From assembly GCA_963749085.1 (NCBI GenBank), contig CAVVLG010000003.1, positions 155,380-219,379 of the forward strand: 64,000 nucleotides of DNA. The letters are read 5' to 3'. This document shows positions 14,539 through 35,690 of the stretch, in pieces. The DNA comes from Candidatus Adlerbacteria bacterium (GTDB lineage: Bacteria > Patescibacteriota > Minisyncoccia > Phycocordibacterales > SBAW01). A model generated the notes under the pieces. It made no database searches. It was not told the origin of the DNA and saw nothing but the letters and a program-made list of their open reading frames with translations. Position numbers and translations under genes: made by a program. Position 1 is the first letter of the stretch. Every line of letters starts with the position of its first letter.

Positions 14539-14952
14539 ATGGCACTCACCTATTTTCTCGCTCAAGTGATAGGGCTGTATCTATTGATTGTAGGACTCAC
14601 CATGCTCTTTTGGAAAAAGCGCTGGATGAATGTCCTTCACGAGTTTTGCCAAAGCCAAGGTGAAACGCTTAGATATATGCTGGGGATAGTAGCTCTTCCT
14701 TTCGGACTTCTATTGGTCTTAGTACATAACTACTGGAACATGGGGGTGCTCGCATTGGTAGTGACGCTTTTCGGGTGGATAATCTTGCTTAAAAGCATTC
14801 TGGTGTTGTTTGTGTTTTCTCCAGAACAGATGGGCCGCTTAGTCAAAGTTTTTTGGATAGAGCAATGGTGGTATGTCTACGTTGTAATAATGTTAATCAT
14901 TGGCGCGTACTTGACGCATGCCGGGTTTACTCAAACTGGGCTGTTGCACTAG
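14539..14952 (+). CDS. Hypothetical integral membrane protein (4 TM)
   Basis: Highly hydrophobic 137-aa ORF; preceded by TATAAT-TTCGGACAAAACA motif. Confidence 0.4.
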   Translation: MALTYFLAQVIGLYLLIVGLTMLFWKKRWMNVLHEFCQSQGETLRYMLGIVALPFGLLLVLVHNYWNMGVLALVVTLFGWIILLKSILVLFVFSPEQMGRLVKVFWIEQWWYVYVVIMLIIGAYLTHAGFTQTGLLH

Positions 14953-15175
14953 CACACAATCAACTTCCAGCTCCACTCACAACTTTCTAATTCGAACTCT
15001 AAGCTATGCCTCAGTATTTGGGGATTTAGCGGTTTGAATCATTCCGATCGCCTCTCAAGTTCGGTTTGGTTAGAACACTTTTTACGAACGTCGGTTTGAT
15101 AACCTCGTATCGGACATCCAACTATGGGGTGGAAAGGTGATAGAATAAAAGGATTATAAATCTTTTAAAATATGT

Positions 15176-15643
15176 ATGAATAAACGAGTGACAATAGCTG
15201 CGAATATACTTCGCCTGCTCCTAGGGTGGTTTATGTTCGTCGACGGTCTGCAAATCCTGCTCACTCCAAATTGGAGCGCGAGCAGTTTCCTTCTTGGCGC
15301 AAAAACCTTCCCCGCTTTCTATGCATGGTTCGCTCTGCCGAGCAACGGATGGTGGGTCAATCCTCTGAATGCGTGGGGTATCACACTCGTCGGGGTCGCA
15401 CTACTTCTCGGAGTCGGGACCCGGCCTGCGGCGTGGGCTGGGGCGGCACTCATGATTCTCTATTACTTCCCGCACTATGCGTTCCCGATCGTGCCAAATG
15501 GGTTCATCGTTGAAGATCATATTATCTACGCTTCGGCATTTGTGCTCGTTGCCGTCTTTCCGGCCGCGCAATCCTTCGGTCTCGCCCGATACCTTCGCGA
15601 AACGTTCTTGGAGCGGATACCGGTCGTGAGTGCATTACTATAG
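15176..15643 (+). CDS. DoxX-family membrane protein
   Basis: LLRLLLGWFMF.DG..IL 4-TM DoxX-like profile. Confidence 0.5.
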   Translation: MNKRVTIAANILRLLLGWFMFVDGLQILLTPNWSASSFLLGAKTFPAFYAWFALPSNGWWVNPLNAWGITLVGVALLLGVGTRPAAWAGAALMILYYFPHYAFPIVPNGFIVEDHIIYASAFVLVAVFPAAQSFGLARYLRETFLERIPVVSALL

Positions 15644-15792
15644 GTACGGCCCGCAACACGTTTTCAGATGGAATCTTCCATTAAGGGTGGTCTCCACGAC
15701 CCATGGTCGTCCAAGCCCGAGAACATCGACGGCGGAACGACTCTCCTCGAAGGCGCCGGCTTAGGGTGACACTACCCAACGCCAGCACAAAG

Positions 15793-15820
15793 CCCCGCGC
15801 AAATGCGGGGTTATTTTTTA
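15793..15820 (+). terminator. Rho-independent terminator
   Basis: ccccgcgcaaatgcgggg plus ttatttttt. Confidence 0.7.
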
Positions 15821-15825
15821 CTCTT

Positions 15826-15885
15826 TTTACTTAGCAACTTAGCAACGTATATACGTATTACCAAGTTGCCAAGGAGTTATAATTT
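15826..15885 (+). repeat. Repeat B2 (copy of 13588-13655) followed by TATAAT-TTGGACAAGACAACTCC motif
   Basis: See B1. Confidence 0.5.
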
Positions 15886-27153: not shown

Positions 27154-27768
27154 TTAAGCTTTAAGTTTTTTGAGCGCTTCAATGGCGGCGTGCGCATTGT
27201 TGAGACCGTTCTTGCTCCCGGAATGGACTTTGGCGACCGTATTGGTGATGCCCGCAAGCTCCAACACGGGGCGCACGGAAGAACCGGCGACCAGGCCGCG
27301 ACCGTGAGCGGGCATCAGCGACACGCGCGAAGCGCAGTACTTGGCGGAGACCTCGTGCGCTATGGAGGAATCCTTGGTGAGGACAATCGTCAGCAAATTC
27401 TTTTTGGCGTCGCGTACCGCTTTGTCAATCGCAAGCGTCGTGTCCCCCGCCTTACCGAGACCCACGCCGACCTTCCCCTTTTTATTGCCCAGTATGAGTG
27501 CGACCGAGAAAGAGAAGCGTCGTCCGCCGGCCACGACGCGCGCCACGCGGCGGATAGTGATGAGCGACTGGTCAAATTCGCTTTTGCGCTCGGTGCGCCG
27601 ACCCGCGTTCCCGCGGCCTCCACGTCCGCGGCGCTCGCCACGTCCACGGCGATCCCGAGTCCGTCCCGCAGGGGCGTCGGCGGGCACGGGAATATCTGCG
27701 ACGACTTCCTCAATCACTTCAGGCACCTCGGGCTCCACTATTATGTTTTCTTGTATTTCGTCAGCCAT
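27154..27768 (-). CDS. rpsE: 30S ribosomal protein S5 with about 60-aa Arg/Gly-rich N-terminal extension
   Basis: ITIRRVARVVAGGRRFSF S5 core; no L30 gene between rpsE and rplO. Confidence 0.85.
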   Translation of the reverse strand: MADEIQENIIVEPEVPEVIEEVVADIPVPADAPAGRTRDRRGRGERRGRGGRGNAGRRTERKSEFDQSLITIRRVARVVAGGRRFSFSVALILGNKKGKVGVGLGKAGDTTLAIDKAVRDAKKNLLTIVLTKDSSIAHEVSAKYCASRVSLMPAHGRGLVAGSSVRPVLELAGITNTVAKVHSGSKNGLNNAHAAIEALKKLKA

Positions 27769-28621: not shown

Positions 28622-29017
28622 TTACCAAATCTCAAACAACGCTTCGCCGCCGACGCGTTTTTCATGTGCTTCTTTGCCGGAAATAACTCCGCTCGGGGTT
28701 GAGAGCACGAGAAGTCCATGGCCGCGTTTGACCGGTTTGATGTCGTGAACGCCCATATACATGCGGCGCGAGGGTTTTGAAATTCTTTTCACACCCGAGA
28801 TCGCCGGGCGACCATTTTTATAAGAAAGTATTATTGAAAGCGAATTTCCGCCAAGCGGATTCTTAACCGTTTTCAATTCGCTGACATAGCCTTCTTTGGC
28901 GAGAATTTCCGCGATGGCAAGCTTCATGCGCGAGTAGGGCGCCGACACGCGGGACTTGCCCGCCATGGAAGCGTTCTGTAAACGGATAAGCAAATCTGCT
29001 ATTGGGTCGGTTACCAT
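28622..29017 (-). CDS. rpsH: 30S ribosomal protein S8
   Basis: [16 protein letters not shown]. Confidence 0.85.
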
Positions 29018-29196
29018 GATGATTTTCGGATGCCCGGTATAAGCCCCTCGTTGGCAGCTTCTCTGAAGCAGGCGCGGCACATGCCAAAATCGCGCATGAA
29101 GGCGCGTTTGCGCCCGCAGCGGAAACAGCGTCGAACCACCCGGGATTTAAATTTGGGTGGGCGGTTTGACCTTGCAACTGTTGATTTTTTTGCCAT
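29011..29196 (-). CDS. rpsZ: 30S ribosomal protein S14, Zn-ribbon type Z (61 aa)
   Basis: [23 protein letters not shown]. Confidence 0.85.
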
Positions 29197-29236: not shown

Positions 29237-29263
29237 CAGAAAAAAGGAGCCCCGACTGGGCTC
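29237..29263 (-). terminator. Rho-independent terminator closing the island's minus-strand transcript
   Basis: Minus-strand gagcccagtcggggctc followed by cttttttct; lies between island and rpsZ start. Confidence 0.65.
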
Positions 29264-29328
29264 ACAAGATACTACGCGAATTGGATTTAGAAGTCAAATT
29301 ACCTTATAGATTGCAGCGTAGAAGAAGG

Positions 29329-30042
29329 TCAAAATGGTATTTGAGCTTGTACACGATACGACAATATATTCGTGACTGGCACGCACGTACCCATCAGTCT
29401 GGTGCACAATATCCTTTTTCCGACGTATCCATGCAGGTTAAAGATAAAGGCATTGGCGATGCTTTCGGCAACGATGAGTGCAAAAATCGTTGCGGCTGGC
29501 AGAAGCCATTCGTCAGCATAAACAGCATCACGCGCCAGACGGTTGTCGGCTCTGAATTTTTTCAGGCCGCGCAGACGCCTACGCTCGACGAGCCGGCTCG
29601 CCTCCAGCGTCGCGCCGTGAGCAAGCTTTGCCTCTGCAACCGAGGCACGTGCGTCGGCAACCGCGAGTGTCACGTCGAGCTGGCGCGGCATGCGCGCCCG
29701 GATTTTCTCGTCGGCGTCGTGGAGCTGACTTGCGAGAAACTGCTTAAGTAAGTTGGCGCCCGACTGGATTTCAGCCACGATTTGCCGCTGCGGATCGTTC
29801 AGATCGGCATCGTCTTTGTGCGGACGGTTCTCGACGCCATCGTCTCGCGCCCGCTCGACCAAGCGCAATGACCTGGCCAAGCGCTCAAAGGCGGGACGGA
29901 GGTGGTCATTGACCTCCGGTAGCCAGCGAGTACGCGTCCATGTCGGAGATTTGGAGAAGGTATTCATCGAGCCGCGGAAGTTCATGGCAGTCACCTTAAT
30001 TATTGGTTTGAGCGTGGCCAGTTGTCGCCTGGCTGAAGACAT
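29329..30042 (-). CDS. Hypothetical charged helical protein with C-terminal TM (tail-anchored); contains direct repeat DR1 in its 3' end
   Basis: 237-aa ORF in GC-rich segment; overlapping plus-strand ORF 29224-29751 judged spurious; coding status uncertain. Confidence 0.35.
   Translation of the reverse strand: MSSARRQLATLKPIIKVTAMNFRGSMNTFSKSPTWTRTRWLPEVNDHLRPAFERLARSLRLVERARDDGVENRPHKDDADLNDPQRQIVAEIQSGANLLKQFLASQLHDADEKIRARMPRQLDVTLAVADARASVAEAKLAHGATLEASRLVERRRLRGLKKFRADNRLARDAVYADEWLLPAATIFALIVAESIANAFIFNLHGYVGKRILCTRLMGTCVPVTNILSYRVQAQIPF
29400..29437. repeat. 38-bp perfect direct repeat DR1 (tggtgcacaatatcctttttccgacgtatccatgcagg)
   Basis: Identical copy at 33679-33716; partial copy ggtgcacaata..tccgacg at 33579-33601. 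Confidence 0.9.
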
Positions 30043-30187
30043 CCATGCTTTCGCTGGGTGGTGAGCACAAACTCTTCGCTAAGAAGGTGTCTAAGCGGGA
30101 TCTGTTTTTTGAACAAAGGCATTGCCGGTGCACTAAATGTGAAGAACGGCGTTTCAGGGTTCGAACGCTTCTCGACTACTTGCGCTG

Positions 30188-31249
30188 ATGTGTGGCCGAA
30201 GCTTCGGATTTTTGAGCGCCCGGCGCAGCGTCATTGAATCTTTCGATCGAGAAGGCTATGTCCGCTTACGCGAAGTGGTTGCTCAGAACCCCGAAATTCG
30301 AGTTGCAGGCTTGGCGCAGGGCGGTGGGTGTCTGAAAAAAAGTGCGCTGATATCAACCGAGAAATGGGCGGGTGGGGAGATGGTCATCGAGCGGAAGGCC
30401 GAAAATTTCAGGTTTTTCCATCCGCGGGAGCCCTGGGGTAAAGGCGGGACTGATTATGTCCAGGTGCATTGTCGTCTGGACGATTTATACGGAATGACTG
30501 GACCGGACGCTGAAACAAATAAAGGGCTCTATAACGCGGCAAAGAGTGAAGGCAATTTTAGGGCCGCATACGAGATAATAGTTAGGCATCGCTCCGAGGA
30601 AAAGTTGAAGGCTCTGAAAGAGGTTATTGCCACGTTGAAGACGCCTGCGCTTTTCGTTTATCCACGGAAGCTGGATTTTGGTGACTCGGGCCGCACATTG
30701 GACCCGGAGAGGCCTACGAACGCCTTGCCGGTGACGCTTACCCGGTTCGTAAGCGCGCGAGTAGGCGGAGAGATATGCAAGGACATAATCCAGATGAGGA
30801 TAAGAAAGCGGACGACTCTCAATCGTCTAATACGCTTTCTTTATCAGCCGGCTTTTAAGGGCCGGGTCATTCCTGGCAGGCGATATGTTCTTGTGGACGA
30901 TGTCATTTCATCGGGGGCGCTATTCGCCTCTCTTCGAAGTCACATCGTGAAGGGCGGCGGCCTTGTCATCGGCATGACAGCGCTTGCGCATGTATCAGGT
31001 AGAGATCAGAAATTGGCGATTTCAAGGGATTCGCTGCAGGCAATGAGGATCGAATTTGGCGAAAAGATTGATGCTTTCTGGAACGGGAAGTTCGGGCACG
31101 GAATTGAGCACCTTACCGACCAAGAAGCAAAGTACCTCTTGGGTCGCTGGCGCTCGCAGCATCAGAGCATTCTGTCGGGTTCTCAGCTGCTTGAATGCCT
31201 TGCTGGCGAGATCGAGCATATTCAAATAGCACACTCCAAATATTCGTAG
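30188..31249 (+). CDS. Phosphoribosyltransferase (PRTase type I) domain protein with about 230-aa uncharacterised N-terminal region
   Basis: RRYVLVDDVISSGALFASL PRPP-binding motif; start codon uncertain (no obvious RBS). Confidence 0.55.
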   Translation: MCGRSFGFLSARRSVIESFDREGYVRLREVVAQNPEIRVAGLAQGGGCLKKSALISTEKWAGGEMVIERKAENFRFFHPREPWGKGGTDYVQVHCRLDDLYGMTGPDAETNKGLYNAAKSEGNFRAAYEIIVRHRSEEKLKALKEVIATLKTPALFVYPRKLDFGDSGRTLDPERPTNALPVTLTRFVSARVGGEICKDIIQMRIRKRTTLNRLIRFLYQPAFKGRVIPGRRYVLVDDVISSGALFASLRSHIVKGGGLVIGMTALAHVSGRDQKLAISRDSLQAMRIEFGEKIDAFWNGKFGHGIEHLTDQEAKYLLGRWRSQHQSILSGSQLLECLAGEIEHIQIAHSKYS

Positions 31250-31297
31250 ATCGCAGTATTTTGCCTTATAATTCATGCTTTTTCATGCTCCCTTGAC

Positions 31298-31332
31298 AAT
31301 TGTACTGTATTTGATAGTATATCCAAAGTTGT
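31298..31332 (+). promoter_or_regulatory. Promoter (TTGACA-16-TAGTAT) overlapped by repeated TTGTACT(G/T)TA / GTAC palindromic operator-like sites
   Basis: cccttgacaattgtactgtatttgatagtatatccaaagttgtactttacagcagtac upstream of ORF 31375. Confidence 0.45.
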
Positions 31333-31374
31333 ACTTTACAGCAGTACTTCGTCAAATCTCCAGTCCGATCCTCG

Positions 31375-31671
31375 GTGCCTGACAAATCGGGCATCGACAA
31401 CTCGGAATGGAGGTTGCTAATGGCACATTCACAATGTTGCAGCGCAAACTCGCCTGACGCGTCACGCGCTGATATCGAAGACGAAGCTTGTCGTCGGCTG
31501 ATGATTTCGCTCTACGGCAGTGAAGCCGAGGCGAGGCTTGTCGCTGAGGCCCTCTTACGGGACATAACGCCCGAAGAGGAGGAACTGATCGAGCGGCGGT
31601 ACAATGCCGGCGACCAAATCGCTGACCAAATTGTGCGCGAGCTTGGTTTCCCTCCCGAACCGGAAAGATAA
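31375..31671 (+). CDS. Small HTH protein, sigma-70 region-4-like (98 aa)
   Basis: ITPEEEELIERRYNAGDQIADQIVREL resembles region 4.2 HTH; C-terminal 55 aa duplicated at N-terminus of ORF 32704. Confidence 0.5.
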   Translation: MPDKSGIDNSEWRLLMAHSQCCSANSPDASRADIEDEACRRLMISLYGSEAEARLVAEALLRDITPEEEELIERRYNAGDQIADQIVRELGFPPEPER

Positions 31672-31715
31672 GGTGAGGGTGGCCGAGCGAGCAATTGGTA
31701 AGCGACTTCGACTTA

Positions 31716-31745
31716 AGACCCCGTAAATGCGGGGTCTTTTTGTAT
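31716..31745 (+). terminator. Rho-independent terminator
   Basis: aagaccccgtaaatgcggggtcttttt. Confidence 0.75.
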
Positions 31746-31855
31746 GCGCTTTATTTTTGGGTATTCTTCAAAAAACGGTGCTGGTTTGGACACTCTGGGT
31801 ACATAGGGTCGCTTAGCCTATCATAGTGGAGTAGAACTCTAGCACGAGAACGGCA

Positions 31856-32707
31856 ATGATACGACTGCAGCAAGCTAGAGTCTCGAAACGCGGTCCAATT
31901 CCGATGGAACGTCGGCGACCATGCGACTATTTAAAAGCACTGACCCCGGCGCATATGAGGGACGTTCGTGAGCATTTAAAAGCAATATACGCGGTGTATT
32001 CAGGGCGTCAGTTGGCGGACGATTGTGCCCAAGTAGCAATACTGTTCCTGTGGAAATACCCCTATGACTTAGAAATCGGTCCGTCCATGGGGGATGAACG
32101 CGATGCCGCTTGGTACGTAGCTGTACATAATTCGCTTCTGCGCTTCGCCAAGTCTCGCGAATTTAGAGGGTCGGTATTGCGGACCGTTTATAAGGGCAAC
32201 TTTAGCAAAGTGTCCCAAACAGAATCCGAAGGCGAACAAGACCCAGATCCAAATTGGGATACGAGCATTCGATGGTTTGAGGGTAATCTCCATTGGGAAA
32301 AGGTTTTCAAAAGTTTCCGAGCATTTTTGGCGGAGCAACCGGATATCGATCCCCTAGAGATTCAGTTGATCGACCAGCTCCACAAAAACGCCGTGCGTGA
32401 GACGATAGATGAAGGAATGGAAGATGTTTTTCGAGGCGAGAGCTTTCAAGTCGTTCACCAGCCGCTGCTAGAAGCATTGCAAGAGCATTTTCGAGCAACA
32501 GGCTGGAATATTGAAATGGTGCGAGTAACGCTCGCGAAAATTCGCCGTCATGCGATCCAATATCGGGAATCTCTAACCACTGGTGACCTTTTAGAATTTC
32601 ATGGACCCCTTCGAACTCAAGCAGATAGCCAATCGTCTATCGAGAAGAAGAAATCCAATGCCGAGCTTTGTCAGCAGACAACATCGACCAAAAGGCCAGT
32701 ATCATGA
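31856..32707 (+). CDS. Hypothetical protein with ECF-sigma region-2-like N-terminal part
   Basis: QLADDCAQVAILFLWKY and AWYVAVHNSLLRFAKSRE resemble sigma-70 regions 2.2 and 2.4; ATGA-overlapped with next gene. Confidence 0.4.
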   Translation: MIRLQQARVSKRGPIPMERRRPCDYLKALTPAHMRDVREHLKAIYAVYSGRQLADDCAQVAILFLWKYPYDLEIGPSMGDERDAAWYVAVHNSLLRFAKSREFRGSVLRTVYKGNFSKVSQTESEGEQDPDPNWDTSIRWFEGNLHWEKVFKSFRAFLAEQPDIDPLEIQLIDQLHKNAVRETIDEGMEDVFRGESFQVVHQPLLEALQEHFRATGWNIEMVRVTLAKIRRHAIQYRESLTTGDLLEFHGPLRTQADSQSSIEKKKSNAELCQQTTSTKRPVS

Positions 32708-33570
32708 CCAAAAAACCCACCCCTGTGAGCGGAACGACAAACGAAGACGAAGCTTGTCGTCGGCTGATGATTTCGCTCTACGGCAGTGAAGCCGAGGCGA
32801 GGCTTGTCGCTGAAGCCCTCTTACGGGACATAACGCCAGAAGAGGAGGAACTGATCGAGCGGCGGTACAATGCCGGCGACCAAATCGCTGACCAAATTGT
32901 GCGCGAAGCTGGATTAGAGTCAAAAGTGCCGGCCGCGATGGGTTATGACGTTGATATCCCGTTCACCGAAGAACAGGAAAAGGAATTTGTCTCATTCGTG
33001 GAAGCAGTTTATCGCCGAGCAGAAGATCAACAAGATCGCACTGCACCTTTAGAGCGAGTTCCAGCTGGCGTCCTGGGCGCTCTGGCAGAACTCGGGCATG
33101 TTGCAGCGGCTAAAGTGGTGTCCGTAGCCGATGTAGTTGGGGAATGGCTATCTTTGCCTTTGCAGGCCTTTAATACGATCGACCTCGCGTACGGGAAGCC
33201 TGCTTTAGCGACTGCCGAGGTCGCTAGCGAACAGGTGCTGCATAAAGTCGGCAAGCGTGTTTTTCTGGCTGACCTAGGCGCAGAAAGCTCGCAGCTAGCG
33301 GAGAGCAAATGGCGATCTGCTGAGATAAGATTGATATTGTCAATTAATTCGCGTCGCGAAATTGATGACGTGAGCATCACGGCTCGTGGAAGTGAACTCG
33401 ATAAATTGACGAATGAAATTCTTGATGTGCGCCTGAGGGATCGAGCGGGTAACAAGCGGACCATTGCTCTTTCTCGGGAACGGCTGCAAGGCTACATGCG
33501 AGGTAAATCACTTTCCGGCGATCTCGCAGAATTAGAGCTACTGGTTCATGTCGACCATCGACCAACGTAA
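32704..33570 (+). CDS. Hypothetical protein with N-terminal sigma-region-4-like HTH (duplicated module)
   Basis: N-terminal 55 aa identical to C-terminus of ORF 31375 (165 nt, 2 mismatches). Confidence 0.5.
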   Translation: MTKKPTPVSGTTNEDEACRRLMISLYGSEAEARLVAEALLRDITPEEEELIERRYNAGDQIADQIVREAGLESKVPAAMGYDVDIPFTEEQEKEFVSFVEAVYRRAEDQQDRTAPLERVPAGVLGALAELGHVAAAKVVSVADVVGEWLSLPLQAFNTIDLAYGKPALATAEVASEQVLHKVGKRVFLADLGAESSQLAESKWRSAEIRLILSINSRREIDDVSITARGSELDKLTNEILDVRLRDRAGNKRTIALSRERLQGYMRGKSLSGDLAELELLVHVDHRPT

Positions 33571-33678
33571 GCTACCGGGGTGCACAATAGAACCTCCGAC
33601 GCTGATCGGCGCTATCGCTCGCGAACTCGAACGTGAGTTGAATGAAGCGATTCCCGCGGAGCTGAAAAGTTGTCGGCT

Positions 33679-33716
33679 TGGTGCACAATATCCTTTTTCC
33701 GACGTATCCATGCAGG
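33679..33716. repeat. 38-bp perfect direct repeat DR2
   Basis: Identical to 29400-29437; 17 nt from cas2 stop. Confidence 0.9.
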
Positions 33717-33733
33717 AGCCAGTAAATTAAGGC

Positions 33734-34045
33734 TTATTTGACTATCCGCACAATCTCATACGCGGGCTTGCCCGTGATGGCCTGTAGCGTCTCATGCCCT
33801 ATGCTAGCATCCTTTGTGCACGACGCACACATAGCGAACGAATAATGCGAATCAGTCTTTCCGCAGAACAGAGTCTTCAGTTTGCTGTCGAGCGACACAC
33901 GTTCCTCCCGATATAAGGTCCCAATATACAGCTTTTTATGTAGCGGCCTGAGCCCAAAATCCTTGCACCAATTCTCAGCCTGTCGCGTCCTGCGCCAGTT
34001 ACGCGTTTGCCAGGATACGACTACCGTAAATAGCAGATTGTTCAT
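33734..34045 (-). CDS. cas2: Putative CRISPR-associated endoribonuclease Cas2
   Basis: Immediately follows cas1 (6-nt gap); about 100 aa; N-terminal LLFTVVVS..RRTRQ pattern like E. coli-type Cas2 (MLVVVTENVPPRLRGRL). Confidence 0.5.
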   Translation of the reverse strand: MNNLLFTVVVSWQTRNWRRTRQAENWCKDFGLRPLHKKLYIGTLYREERVSLDSKLKTLFCGKTDSHYSFAMCASCTKDASIGHETLQAITGKPAYEIVRIVK

Positions 34046-35083: not shown

Positions 35084-35110
35084 TAATAAAAAAGGATACC
35101 AGAAGTATCC
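35084..35110 (-). terminator. Rho-independent terminator after rplE, upstream of cas1
   Basis: Minus-strand ggatacuucugguaucc followed by U6. Confidence 0.65.
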
Positions 35111-35153: not shown

Positions 35154-35690
35154 CTACTTTTTGAACGGGAACCCGAGGTGTGCGAGATACTCCTCGGCTT
35201 CTTTTTTATTTTTCGCAGTGGTGACGATAGTCGTCGCCATACCGAACACGTCCTTAAGTTCTTCATCGGTGGTCTCTGGAAAAACAATATGTTCTTTGAT
35301 GCCAAGTGTATAGTTGCCCATTTCATCAATGGCACCTTTTGAGATTCCTTTGAAGTCTTTAGTGCGCGGGAGCGCCACATGGATGAGACGGTTCAAAAAA
35401 TCTTCGGCACGCTTGCCGCGCAGTGTTACTTGGTATCCTACTTTGTCGCCAATGCGCGTTTTGTACGTCGCAATGGACTTTTTGGCTCCTCGCGTGGCTG
35501 GTTTTTGTCCTGTTATCTTTGCCAAGCGGTCGGCAACCAATTCAACCTTCGGTTTATCCTTGGCCATCTTGCCCACACCAACTGAAATAACCACTTTTTC
35601 TATACGCGGTACTTGCATGGCGTTTTTCCATTTGAATTCGGTTTTCAAAGCGCTGAAAGCCTTTTTCTGTTTGACTTGAATAAGTTCCAT
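35154..35690 (-). CDS. rplE: 50S ribosomal protein L5
   Basis: Full-length L5 similarity. Confidence 0.9.
   Translation of the reverse strand: MELIQVKQKKAFSALKTEFKWKNAMQVPRIEKVVISVGVGKMAKDKPKVELVADRLAKITGQKPATRGAKKSIATYKTRIGDKVGYQVTLRGKRAEDFLNRLIHVALPRTKDFKGISKGAIDEMGNYTLGIKEHIVFPETTDEELKDVFGMATTIVTTAKNKKEAEEYLAHLGFPFKK

Follow-up and report, generated by a model that had tools for sequence, protein, structure and literature searches.

We analyzed a 64,000-nucleotide (nt) stretch of the Candidatus Adlerbacteria contig CAVVLG010000003.1 (positions 155,380 to 219,379, here called the window) and, within it, three adjacent genes, the trio, whose open reading frames (ORFs) encode proteins of 98, 283 and 288 amino acids (aa). 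The trio lies in a truncated fragment of a plasmid or integrative and conjugative element (ICE) that is flanked by duplicated repeats of the CRISPR type beside cas1-cas2, and this architecture recurs in related genomes. On balance we think that the trio is passenger DNA, brought to this site by the integration of a giant spacer, and that it may have been a regulatory core in its native element. A first-pass annotation made from the letters alone had taken the three genes for a sigma-factor-like set carrying a freshly duplicated helix-turn-helix (HTH) module; this interpretation was partly supported as a whole, and it overlooked the fragment, the repeats and the adjoining cas1-cas2.

A truncated mobile-element fragment lies between two CRISPR-type repeats

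The trio is indeed carried by an island, as had been annotated. The island splits the spc ribosomal protein operon into L14-L24-L5 on one side and S14-S8-L6-L18-S5-L15-SecY on the other, and both flanks are collinear (Table 1). It contains a cas1 gene whose product matched the Archaeoglobus fulgidus Cas1 structure 4n06 (1.3e-32), with the catalytic E/H/D-E motifs GIEG, LYH and DMVEEFR conserved. The product of the neighboring cas2-like gene scored 13.5 bits against Pfam CRISPR_Cas2, where the cut-off is 23.8. From the cas2 stop codon to the leader-proximal repeat the gap is 17 nt. The chance expectation for a perfect 38-nt repeat is 0 copies, and no copy beyond the two listed was found within the window.

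Between these repeats, the insert begins and ends within genes. The stub at the leader-proximal end encodes, at 33605-33664, IGAIARELERELNEAIPAEL, which matches residues 3-22 of a 944-aa protein of a related mobile element (locus L026) at 11 of 20 positions. The ORF that crosses the distal repeat is probably a 3'-truncated gene without known relatives; no homologues were present in mobile-element loci or in plasmids (PLSDB).

No effector genes were found in the window, in which weak matches to Cas3, Cas10 and IetA proved to be RecG, RNase Y and FtsH. We searched for terminal inverted repeats (TIRs) or a target-site duplication around the whole island and found none. Scans of the island with domain and family libraries identified no recombinase, and an Rfam scan of it returned neither CRISPR-DR nor any other family.

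Table 1. Coordinates of the island features and bordering genes, in window positions
Feature	Position	Strand	Remarks
rpsN (S14, short zinc-ribbon form)	29011..29196	-	spc operon resumes; Pfam Ribosomal_S14 3e-19
ORF leaving the insert through the distal repeat	29329..30042	-	C-terminus encoded by repeat and flank
Distal repeat, 38 nt	29400..29437	-	perfect duplicate of 33679-33716
Insert, 4,241 bp, plasmid/ICE-type module fragment	29438..33678		syntenic with L001, L025 and L026; genes truncated at both ends
KfrC-like PRTase-domain gene, 353 aa	30188..31249	+	opens the mobile-element module
Promoter-like site, TTGACA-16-TAGTAT with TG	31293..31320	+	upstream of small gene
Small gene, 98 aa from GTG (probable start ATG 31420, giving 83 aa)	31375..31671	+	free-standing helical module
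Module copy A, 165 nt	31476..31640	+	in small gene
Terminator-like hairpin (strong), 10-bp stem and T-run	31715..31738	+	3' of small gene
Middle gene, 267 aa from ATG 31904 (ORF opens at 31856, 283 aa)	31904..32707	+	predicted all-alpha, two domains
Third gene, 288 aa	32704..33570	+	predicted N-terminal helical module and beta-rich C-terminal domain (AlphaFold2 secondary structure)
Module copy B, 165 nt	32742..32906	+	in third gene
5' stub of ~1000-aa gene, cut by the repeat (ORF reads on to 33730)	33548..33678	+	~40 codons
Leader-proximal repeat, 38 nt (family consensus 37 nt, 33680-33716)	33679..33716	-	perfect duplicate
Leader-like motif AAGCCTTAATTTACTGGCT	33717..33735	-	abuts first repeat; 15 related loci have a conserved CCTTAnTTnaCnGGCT-like motif at this position
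cas2-like gene, 103 aa, divergent	33734..34045	-	PADLOC Cas2b 1.1e-6; directly after cas1, also in L002-L006
cas1, 336 aa	34052..35062	-	Pfam Cas_Cas1 1.4e-66; TIGR00287 1.2e-67
rplE (L5)	35154..35690	-	last spc gene before island; Pfam Ribosomal_L5, L5_C, E 1e-18, 3e-31

The architecture recurs in related Cas1 loci

Relatives of the window Cas1 with 59-82% identity came from metagenomes and from metagenome-assembled genomes (MAGs) of Parcubacteria, Paceibacterota and 'Saccharibacteria'. Most of their loci carried members of the 37-nt family to which the window repeat belongs, ~25-45 nt after cas2 and with a conserved leader motif before the repeat; the Cas1 proteins of the loci with this repeat and leader were 63-82% identical to that of the window. 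The family consensus is CCTGCA-N7-GTCGCAMAARGG-N3-TTGTGCA[AC]C. Many loci had a single repeat, and two or three were present in L003/L008, L004, L005 and L007, where they enclosed inserts of 1262, 1482, 1337, 1290, 670 and 7672 bp. Ordinary spacers of 30-40 bp occurred in none of the related loci. L002, L003 and L007 have common flanks (pgk-tpiA upstream) and unrelated inserts; L002 and L003 also have the downstream pilus genes in common. Beside cas1-cas2 in L003, L005 and L007 we found no effector genes, the flanks consisting of housekeeping genes. GTDB representative genomes contained no exact match to a 26-nt core of the repeat, and IMG/VR held no relatives of either the window Cas1 or the repeat.

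In the window (33680-33716) and in all family repeats each end has an inward-facing TGCA palindrome, 5'-CCTGCA...TGTGCAAC-3'. The 3' arm, TTGTGC, is invariant, and its would-be pairing partner varies without compensation. An RNA hairpin was considered and rejected: folding energies were no better than those of shuffled sequences, and by eye the 5' arm varied without compensation in ten repeat variants. The palindromic ends, with their uncompensated variation, suggest recognition by a protein rather than an RNA structure.

Compared with L009 (1-1799), L019 (1096-2266) has a deletion that runs from the middle of cas1 exactly to the leader/repeat junction, taking the cas1 C-terminus, cas2 and the leader and leaving the repeat intact. 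In L007, an ORF for an IS256-family transposase (14801-15847) is cut short at the 3' end precisely where the distal repeat has its outer edge, and may stem from an older capture. In L005 (13405-15400) the last repeat is followed immediately by a RadC/JAB-like gene, small ORFs and a gene for a DNA methyltransferase; this region is reminiscent of the leading region of a plasmid and could be another insert, one that has lost its outer repeat. L002 (11373-13410) has a single repeat and no detectable distal one; ~2 kb of DNA, which encodes a 475-aa transporter and an ArsR-like fragment, separates this repeat from the pilus genes, which in L003 begin 33 nt past the last repeat.

The inserts derive from plasmids, ICEs and phages where a source was identified

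We compared the trio and its neighbors with loci from intact mobile elements and found a conserved ICE module with the order KfrC-like protein, small protein, 283-aa protein, 288-aa protein, ~1000-aa protein and actin-like ATPase. L001, a 22-kb contig that carries a relative of the 288-aa protein, has genes for a PRTase-like protein and for proteins of 77, 258 and 259 aa in the same order as the window. After these four genes come those for a 1042-aa protein, a Ppx-GppA/ASKHA ATPase and Replic_Relax, and genes for the coupling protein of a type IV secretion system adjoin. The module of L025/L026 adjoins genes for a tyrosine integrase, AlpA, ThiF/JAB and an MT-A70 methylase, and a more distant version in L023/L024 lies beside an integrase and a primase. 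In the intact elements an unannotated protein of 915-1067 aa always follows the trio (L001, 8749-12953; L025, 11597-15345; L023, 11675-14878), and in L001 and L025/L026 the Ppx-GppA/ASKHA (actin-like) ATPase is also encoded downstream of it. The module is uncharacterised. Of the large gene downstream of the trio in these elements, the window insert retains the first ~40 codons.

The gene upstream of the trio was 33% identical to the N-terminal half of IncP-1 KfrC (E 1.4e-29), with matches in 154 plasmid records. It also matched phrog_22413 (8e-27) and was 57-60% identical to its L001 and L025 counterparts. KfrC is a plasmid 'stable inheritance' protein, and the homology bears out a plasmid origin of the window insert. 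Because syntenic modules occur in L001, L025/L026 and L023/L024 and a KfrC homologue lies upstream, we regard the trio as the core of a mobile-element module and not as a host regulon. The resemblance to the IncP-1 kfrA-kfrB-kfrC operon consists of this clear homologue of the KfrC N-terminal PRTase-like domain, a plasmid or ICE maintenance setting and coiled-coil-like partners. The differences are that nothing in the trio is similar to KfrA, KfrB or the C-terminus of KfrC, that its gene order is another one, and that a ~1000-aa protein and an ASKHA ATPase follow downstream.

Among the other inserts, that of L007 encodes phage tail proteins, is collinear with the IMG/VR contig L027 (72% nt identity over 3.7 kb) and has a border 74 codons inside a phage ORF. 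The L004 insert contains a 5'-truncated Ppx-GppA-like gene related to that of the trio's native module. The L003 inserts encode complete-looking secreted/PEP-CTERM proteins, and searches of viral contigs with the insert proteins of L003 and L005 returned nothing.

The duplicated module has been homogenized by gene conversion

The ORFs of the trio were present as first annotated. Judged by homology, translation probably begins at 31420 in the small gene and 31904 in the middle gene, and the ATG at 32704 was confirmed as the start of the third. The ATGA overlap of the middle and third genes (32704-32707) is also real, and homologous loci keep a stop/start overlap (8 nt in L001, 4 nt in L025 and 1 nt in L023). 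The small gene is homologous to those for the 77-aa protein of L001 and the 91-aa protein of L025.

A 165-nt direct repeat shared by the small and third genes was confirmed, with two mismatches (31548 G/A and 31572 C/A). Both are synonymous and at third codon positions, a further difference at the edge of the tract (31641) is synonymous too, and the 54-aa modules encoded by copies A and B are identical. We compared the two copies within each lineage. In the window they were identical at 159 of 162 nt and in L025 at 161 of 162, with 54 of 54 aa identical in both; in L001 the figures were 107 of 162 nt and 37 of 54 aa. Between lineages the module was ~65-70% identical in nucleotide sequence. Since both copies exist in every lineage examined, L001 and L025 included, the duplication is ancient, and its description as fresh was wrong. 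Set against the paralogous pair of L001, the near-identity in the window lies far beyond chance. The comparison across lineages bears out the suggestion of ongoing gene conversion, and shows concerted evolution by this route, independently at least twice. Such homogenization is consistent with selection for both carriers keeping the same binding surface.

The module had been described as an HTH like that of sigma region 4.2. We could not align it to region 4 (hhalign probability 0.1%), and it had no Pfam match. A profile of the module compared with the PDB most resembled GCN4-type coiled coils, at an insignificant E of ~0.02. A partner-binding or oligomerization domain is more plausible than an HTH.

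The middle protein shows faint sigma-like traits

Searches of the trio proteins against Pfam, PHROGs, NCBIfam and PADLOC returned nothing significant. The middle-protein family comprises 29 clusters among 1.84 billion representatives. Only two relatives of the 288-aa protein (P0002 and P0003) were found among 5.8 billion proteins, with coverage limited to the N-terminal 120 aa, and neither the 283-aa nor the 288-aa protein had relatives in IMG/VR or PLSDB.

None of the three proteins matched the Sigma70_r2 or Sigma70_r4 hidden Markov models even at E<=1, a result that by the first-pass annotation's own account refutes its sigma interpretation. One of 25 aligned members of the middle-protein family matched Sigma70_r2, at an E of 0.04 that is below any cut-off. 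The family profile compared with the PDB yielded no sigma factor, and its best C-terminal match was an AraC-type HTH (E 0.17). With hhalign, the sole alignment of the middle protein to RpoE/SigW placed a conserved DCxQEA motif on sigma region 2.1-2.2 with a probability of 2.2%. We also predicted structures with AlphaFold2, which gave low-confidence models (predicted local distance difference test scores of 43.5 for the 283-aa protein and 39.2 for the 288-aa protein). A Foldseek search of the PDB with the former placed chains of the sigma-70 family at ranks 1, 2 and 5 and in 8-9 of 41 matches, and a phage sigma-70 ranked first in BFVD, in both cases with E of at least 0.26. Because the models are low-confidence, we treat these matches as hints only. 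Foldseek matches of the 288-aa model were generic beta-sandwich noise and were set aside. Our best guess from these weak but convergent signals is that the middle protein may be a very divergent sigma-like or HTH regulator.

Of the reading as a split or modular sigma factor, or a sigma/anti-sigma set, the translational coupling and the carriage by an island were borne out and the middle protein has weak sigma-like signals; significant Sigma70 matches and an alignment of the module to region 4 were not found. Like pairs of extracytoplasmic function sigma and anti-sigma factors, the trio has a predicted all-alpha, two-domain protein in which DCxQEA aligns, at low probability, with sigma region 2.2, and a coupled downstream gene for a protein with a helical N-terminal and a variable C-terminal domain. 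Unlike them, it matches no Sigma70 region model significantly, it adds a free-standing copy of the partner's N-terminal domain that gene conversion keeps identical, and its middle protein belongs to a tiny family (those 29 clusters) confined to mobile elements. The trio is of interest as a rare, mobile-element-restricted protein family with faint sigma-like traits, and as a clean case of a putative protein-binding module held identical in two genes by recurrent gene conversion.

Cas1-Cas2 may have inserted the fragment as a giant spacer

We infer that Cas1-Cas2 integrated the kilobase fragments of these loci as 'giant spacers'. Long foreign DNA would be integrated at the leader-proximal repeat, which would be duplicated on integration, as happens when spacers are acquired, though with no length ruler of the usual kind. 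In the native element the trio may, with low confidence, have been a regulatory core. The middle protein would be the divergent sigma-like or HTH regulator, and the co-translated 288-aa protein its partner, binding it through a coiled-coil-like N-terminal domain of three helices and ending in a C-terminal domain that is variable and rich in beta structure. The small protein would then be a free-standing (decoy) copy of that binding domain, and the module copies may be kept identical because both must fit the same partner.

More broadly, we see an even chance that a clade of Cas1-Cas2 from the Candidate Phyla Radiation (CPR), without a length ruler or nearby effectors, inserts phage and plasmid DNA of kilobase length at the leader-proximal copy of a 37-nt repeat and so builds giant-spacer arrays, that it represents either a living casposon-CRISPR intermediate or a new memory or gene-capture device in ultrasmall bacteria, and that the trio is the content of one spacer. 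In the literature that we searched, the coverage of which is incomplete, no published description of kilobase inserts in Cas1-Cas2 arrays was found. If the proposal is true, the DNA that CRISPR adaptation machinery can take up exceeds any known spacer ~100-fold in length. This would bear on the origin of CRISPR from casposon-like integrases, on the role of effector-less cas1-cas2 loci and on the recording or acquisition of foreign DNA in CPR bacteria, whose genomes are tiny and in which few defence systems are known; a natural enzyme that inserts kilobase DNA site-specifically would be a further implication.

The window locus resembles a CRISPR array with Cas1-Cas2 in that it has a cas1 with an intact active site, a cas2-like gene, a short conserved leader and a direct repeat (37/38 nt) on either side of foreign DNA adjoining the cas genes, and in that the content of the inserts, plasmid or phage, varies between related genomes. 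Unlike such an array it lies inside the spc ribosomal operon, has no effector genes in the window or beside cas1-cas2 in the related loci examined, and has a repeat whose hairpin is not maintained by covariation. Its inserts measure 0.67-7.7 kb as opposed to ~30-40 bp, the 4,241 bp of the window being about a hundred-fold longer than a CRISPR spacer, and there are only 1-3 repeats. Casposons share with it a Cas1-family integrase, inserted DNA of kilobase size and a direct target duplication, and the casposase structure 6opm was the third-best PDB match of the window Cas1. However, casposons hold cas1 and polB inside the element and have TIRs and target duplications of ~14-15 bp, whereas in the window cas1-cas2 lies outside the inserted DNA, a cas2-like gene is present, TIRs and PolB are absent and a 37-nt unit is duplicated. 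Integrons are similar in that an integrase gene has behind it a variable array of kilobase-scale units with a recurring site between them, but they use the tyrosine recombinase IntI, imperfect attC hairpins and whole, mostly promoterless gene cassettes. The island lacks IntI, its repeats match each other exactly, and arbitrary fragments in which genes are truncated make up the inserts.

Alternative explanations

Several points weigh against giant-spacer integration and against a regulatory trio. Characterised Cas1-Cas2 complexes measure prespacers of ~30-40 bp. Only five distinct loci, with seven inserts between them, have two or more repeats, most loci having one, and a source was identified for only three of the seven. 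Every functional signal for the trio is statistically insignificant and its AlphaFold2 models are poor. The trio genes are also intact and have promoter-like and terminator-like sites of their own, and for this reason could be expressed and useful to the host. This last point is compatible with an integron-like platform in which Cas1-Cas2 collects whole, useful genes for expression by the CPR host and the trio has been domesticated as a set of regulators. The complete-looking genes of the L003 inserts, and content that differs between genomes with common flanks, fit such a platform. We nevertheless consider it doubtful, since insert borders cut genes in the window, L007 and L004, the inserts have mixed orientations relative to the leader, and the window has only part of a larger conserved module. 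That truncation relative to intact elements also counts against the view that the island has a working sigma/anti-sigma or split-sigma set in which a region-4.2 HTH was freshly duplicated. The placement of DCxQEA, the single Sigma70_r2 match in the family, the sigma factors at the top of the Foldseek lists and an ATGA coupling typical of sigma/anti-sigma pairs speak for a set of this kind. But with no Sigma70 match at E<=1, no sigma factor among the profile matches to the PDB, a module that is coiled-coil-like and does not align to region 4, and a duplication that is ancient, it seems to us improbable.

Alternatively, a small circular element bearing its own repeat could have recombined, homologously or site-specifically, at a single chromosomal repeat without any role for Cas1-Cas2. 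A single crossover at a shared sequence gives exactly the order repeat, element, repeat, and the insert does contain a degenerate repeat-like motif at 33579-33614 (TATTGTGCACC and CGTCGGA, with the spacing correct minus 2 nt), 64 nt from the proximal repeat. The motif could be a microhomology used at integration or could be due to chance; the homologous spot in L026 has GCACAAAAT only. The repeat family is absent from IMG/VR, from the donor-like loci and from the phage contig, which argues against recombination with an element-borne repeat. In addition, the insert ends fall within genes, genes for an integrase or for replication are missing from the inserts, and the repeats always abut cas2 and the conserved leader. 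We therefore think this route rather unlikely. The window does stem from a metagenome-assembled contig, and a chimera joined through a short repeat would mimic an insertion, yet the same architecture appears in contigs of different projects (L003/L008, L004, L005 and L007) and the insert lies mid-operon between collinear flanks, so that an assembly artefact is highly improbable. Integration by Cas1-Cas2 of a passenger fragment remains the explanation that we favor.

Flanks of the island

On the minus strand, a terminator-like hairpin (35094-35110) lies right after rplE, and a promoter-like site and a hairpin (29247-29297) lie just upstream of rpsN. Because of these the spc operon seems to be divided by the island into two units of transcription. 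Elsewhere in the window, an IS4/5-family transposase domain, DUF4096, was detected (E 8e-28) in one of the 32 flanking ORFs scanned. Within the operon, the genes for S5 (27154-27768) and L15 (26702-27148) are 5 nt apart, and an intervening L30 gene is missing. CPR/Patescibacteria characteristically lack L30, and the arrangement in the window fits the CPR origin of the Cas1 relatives.

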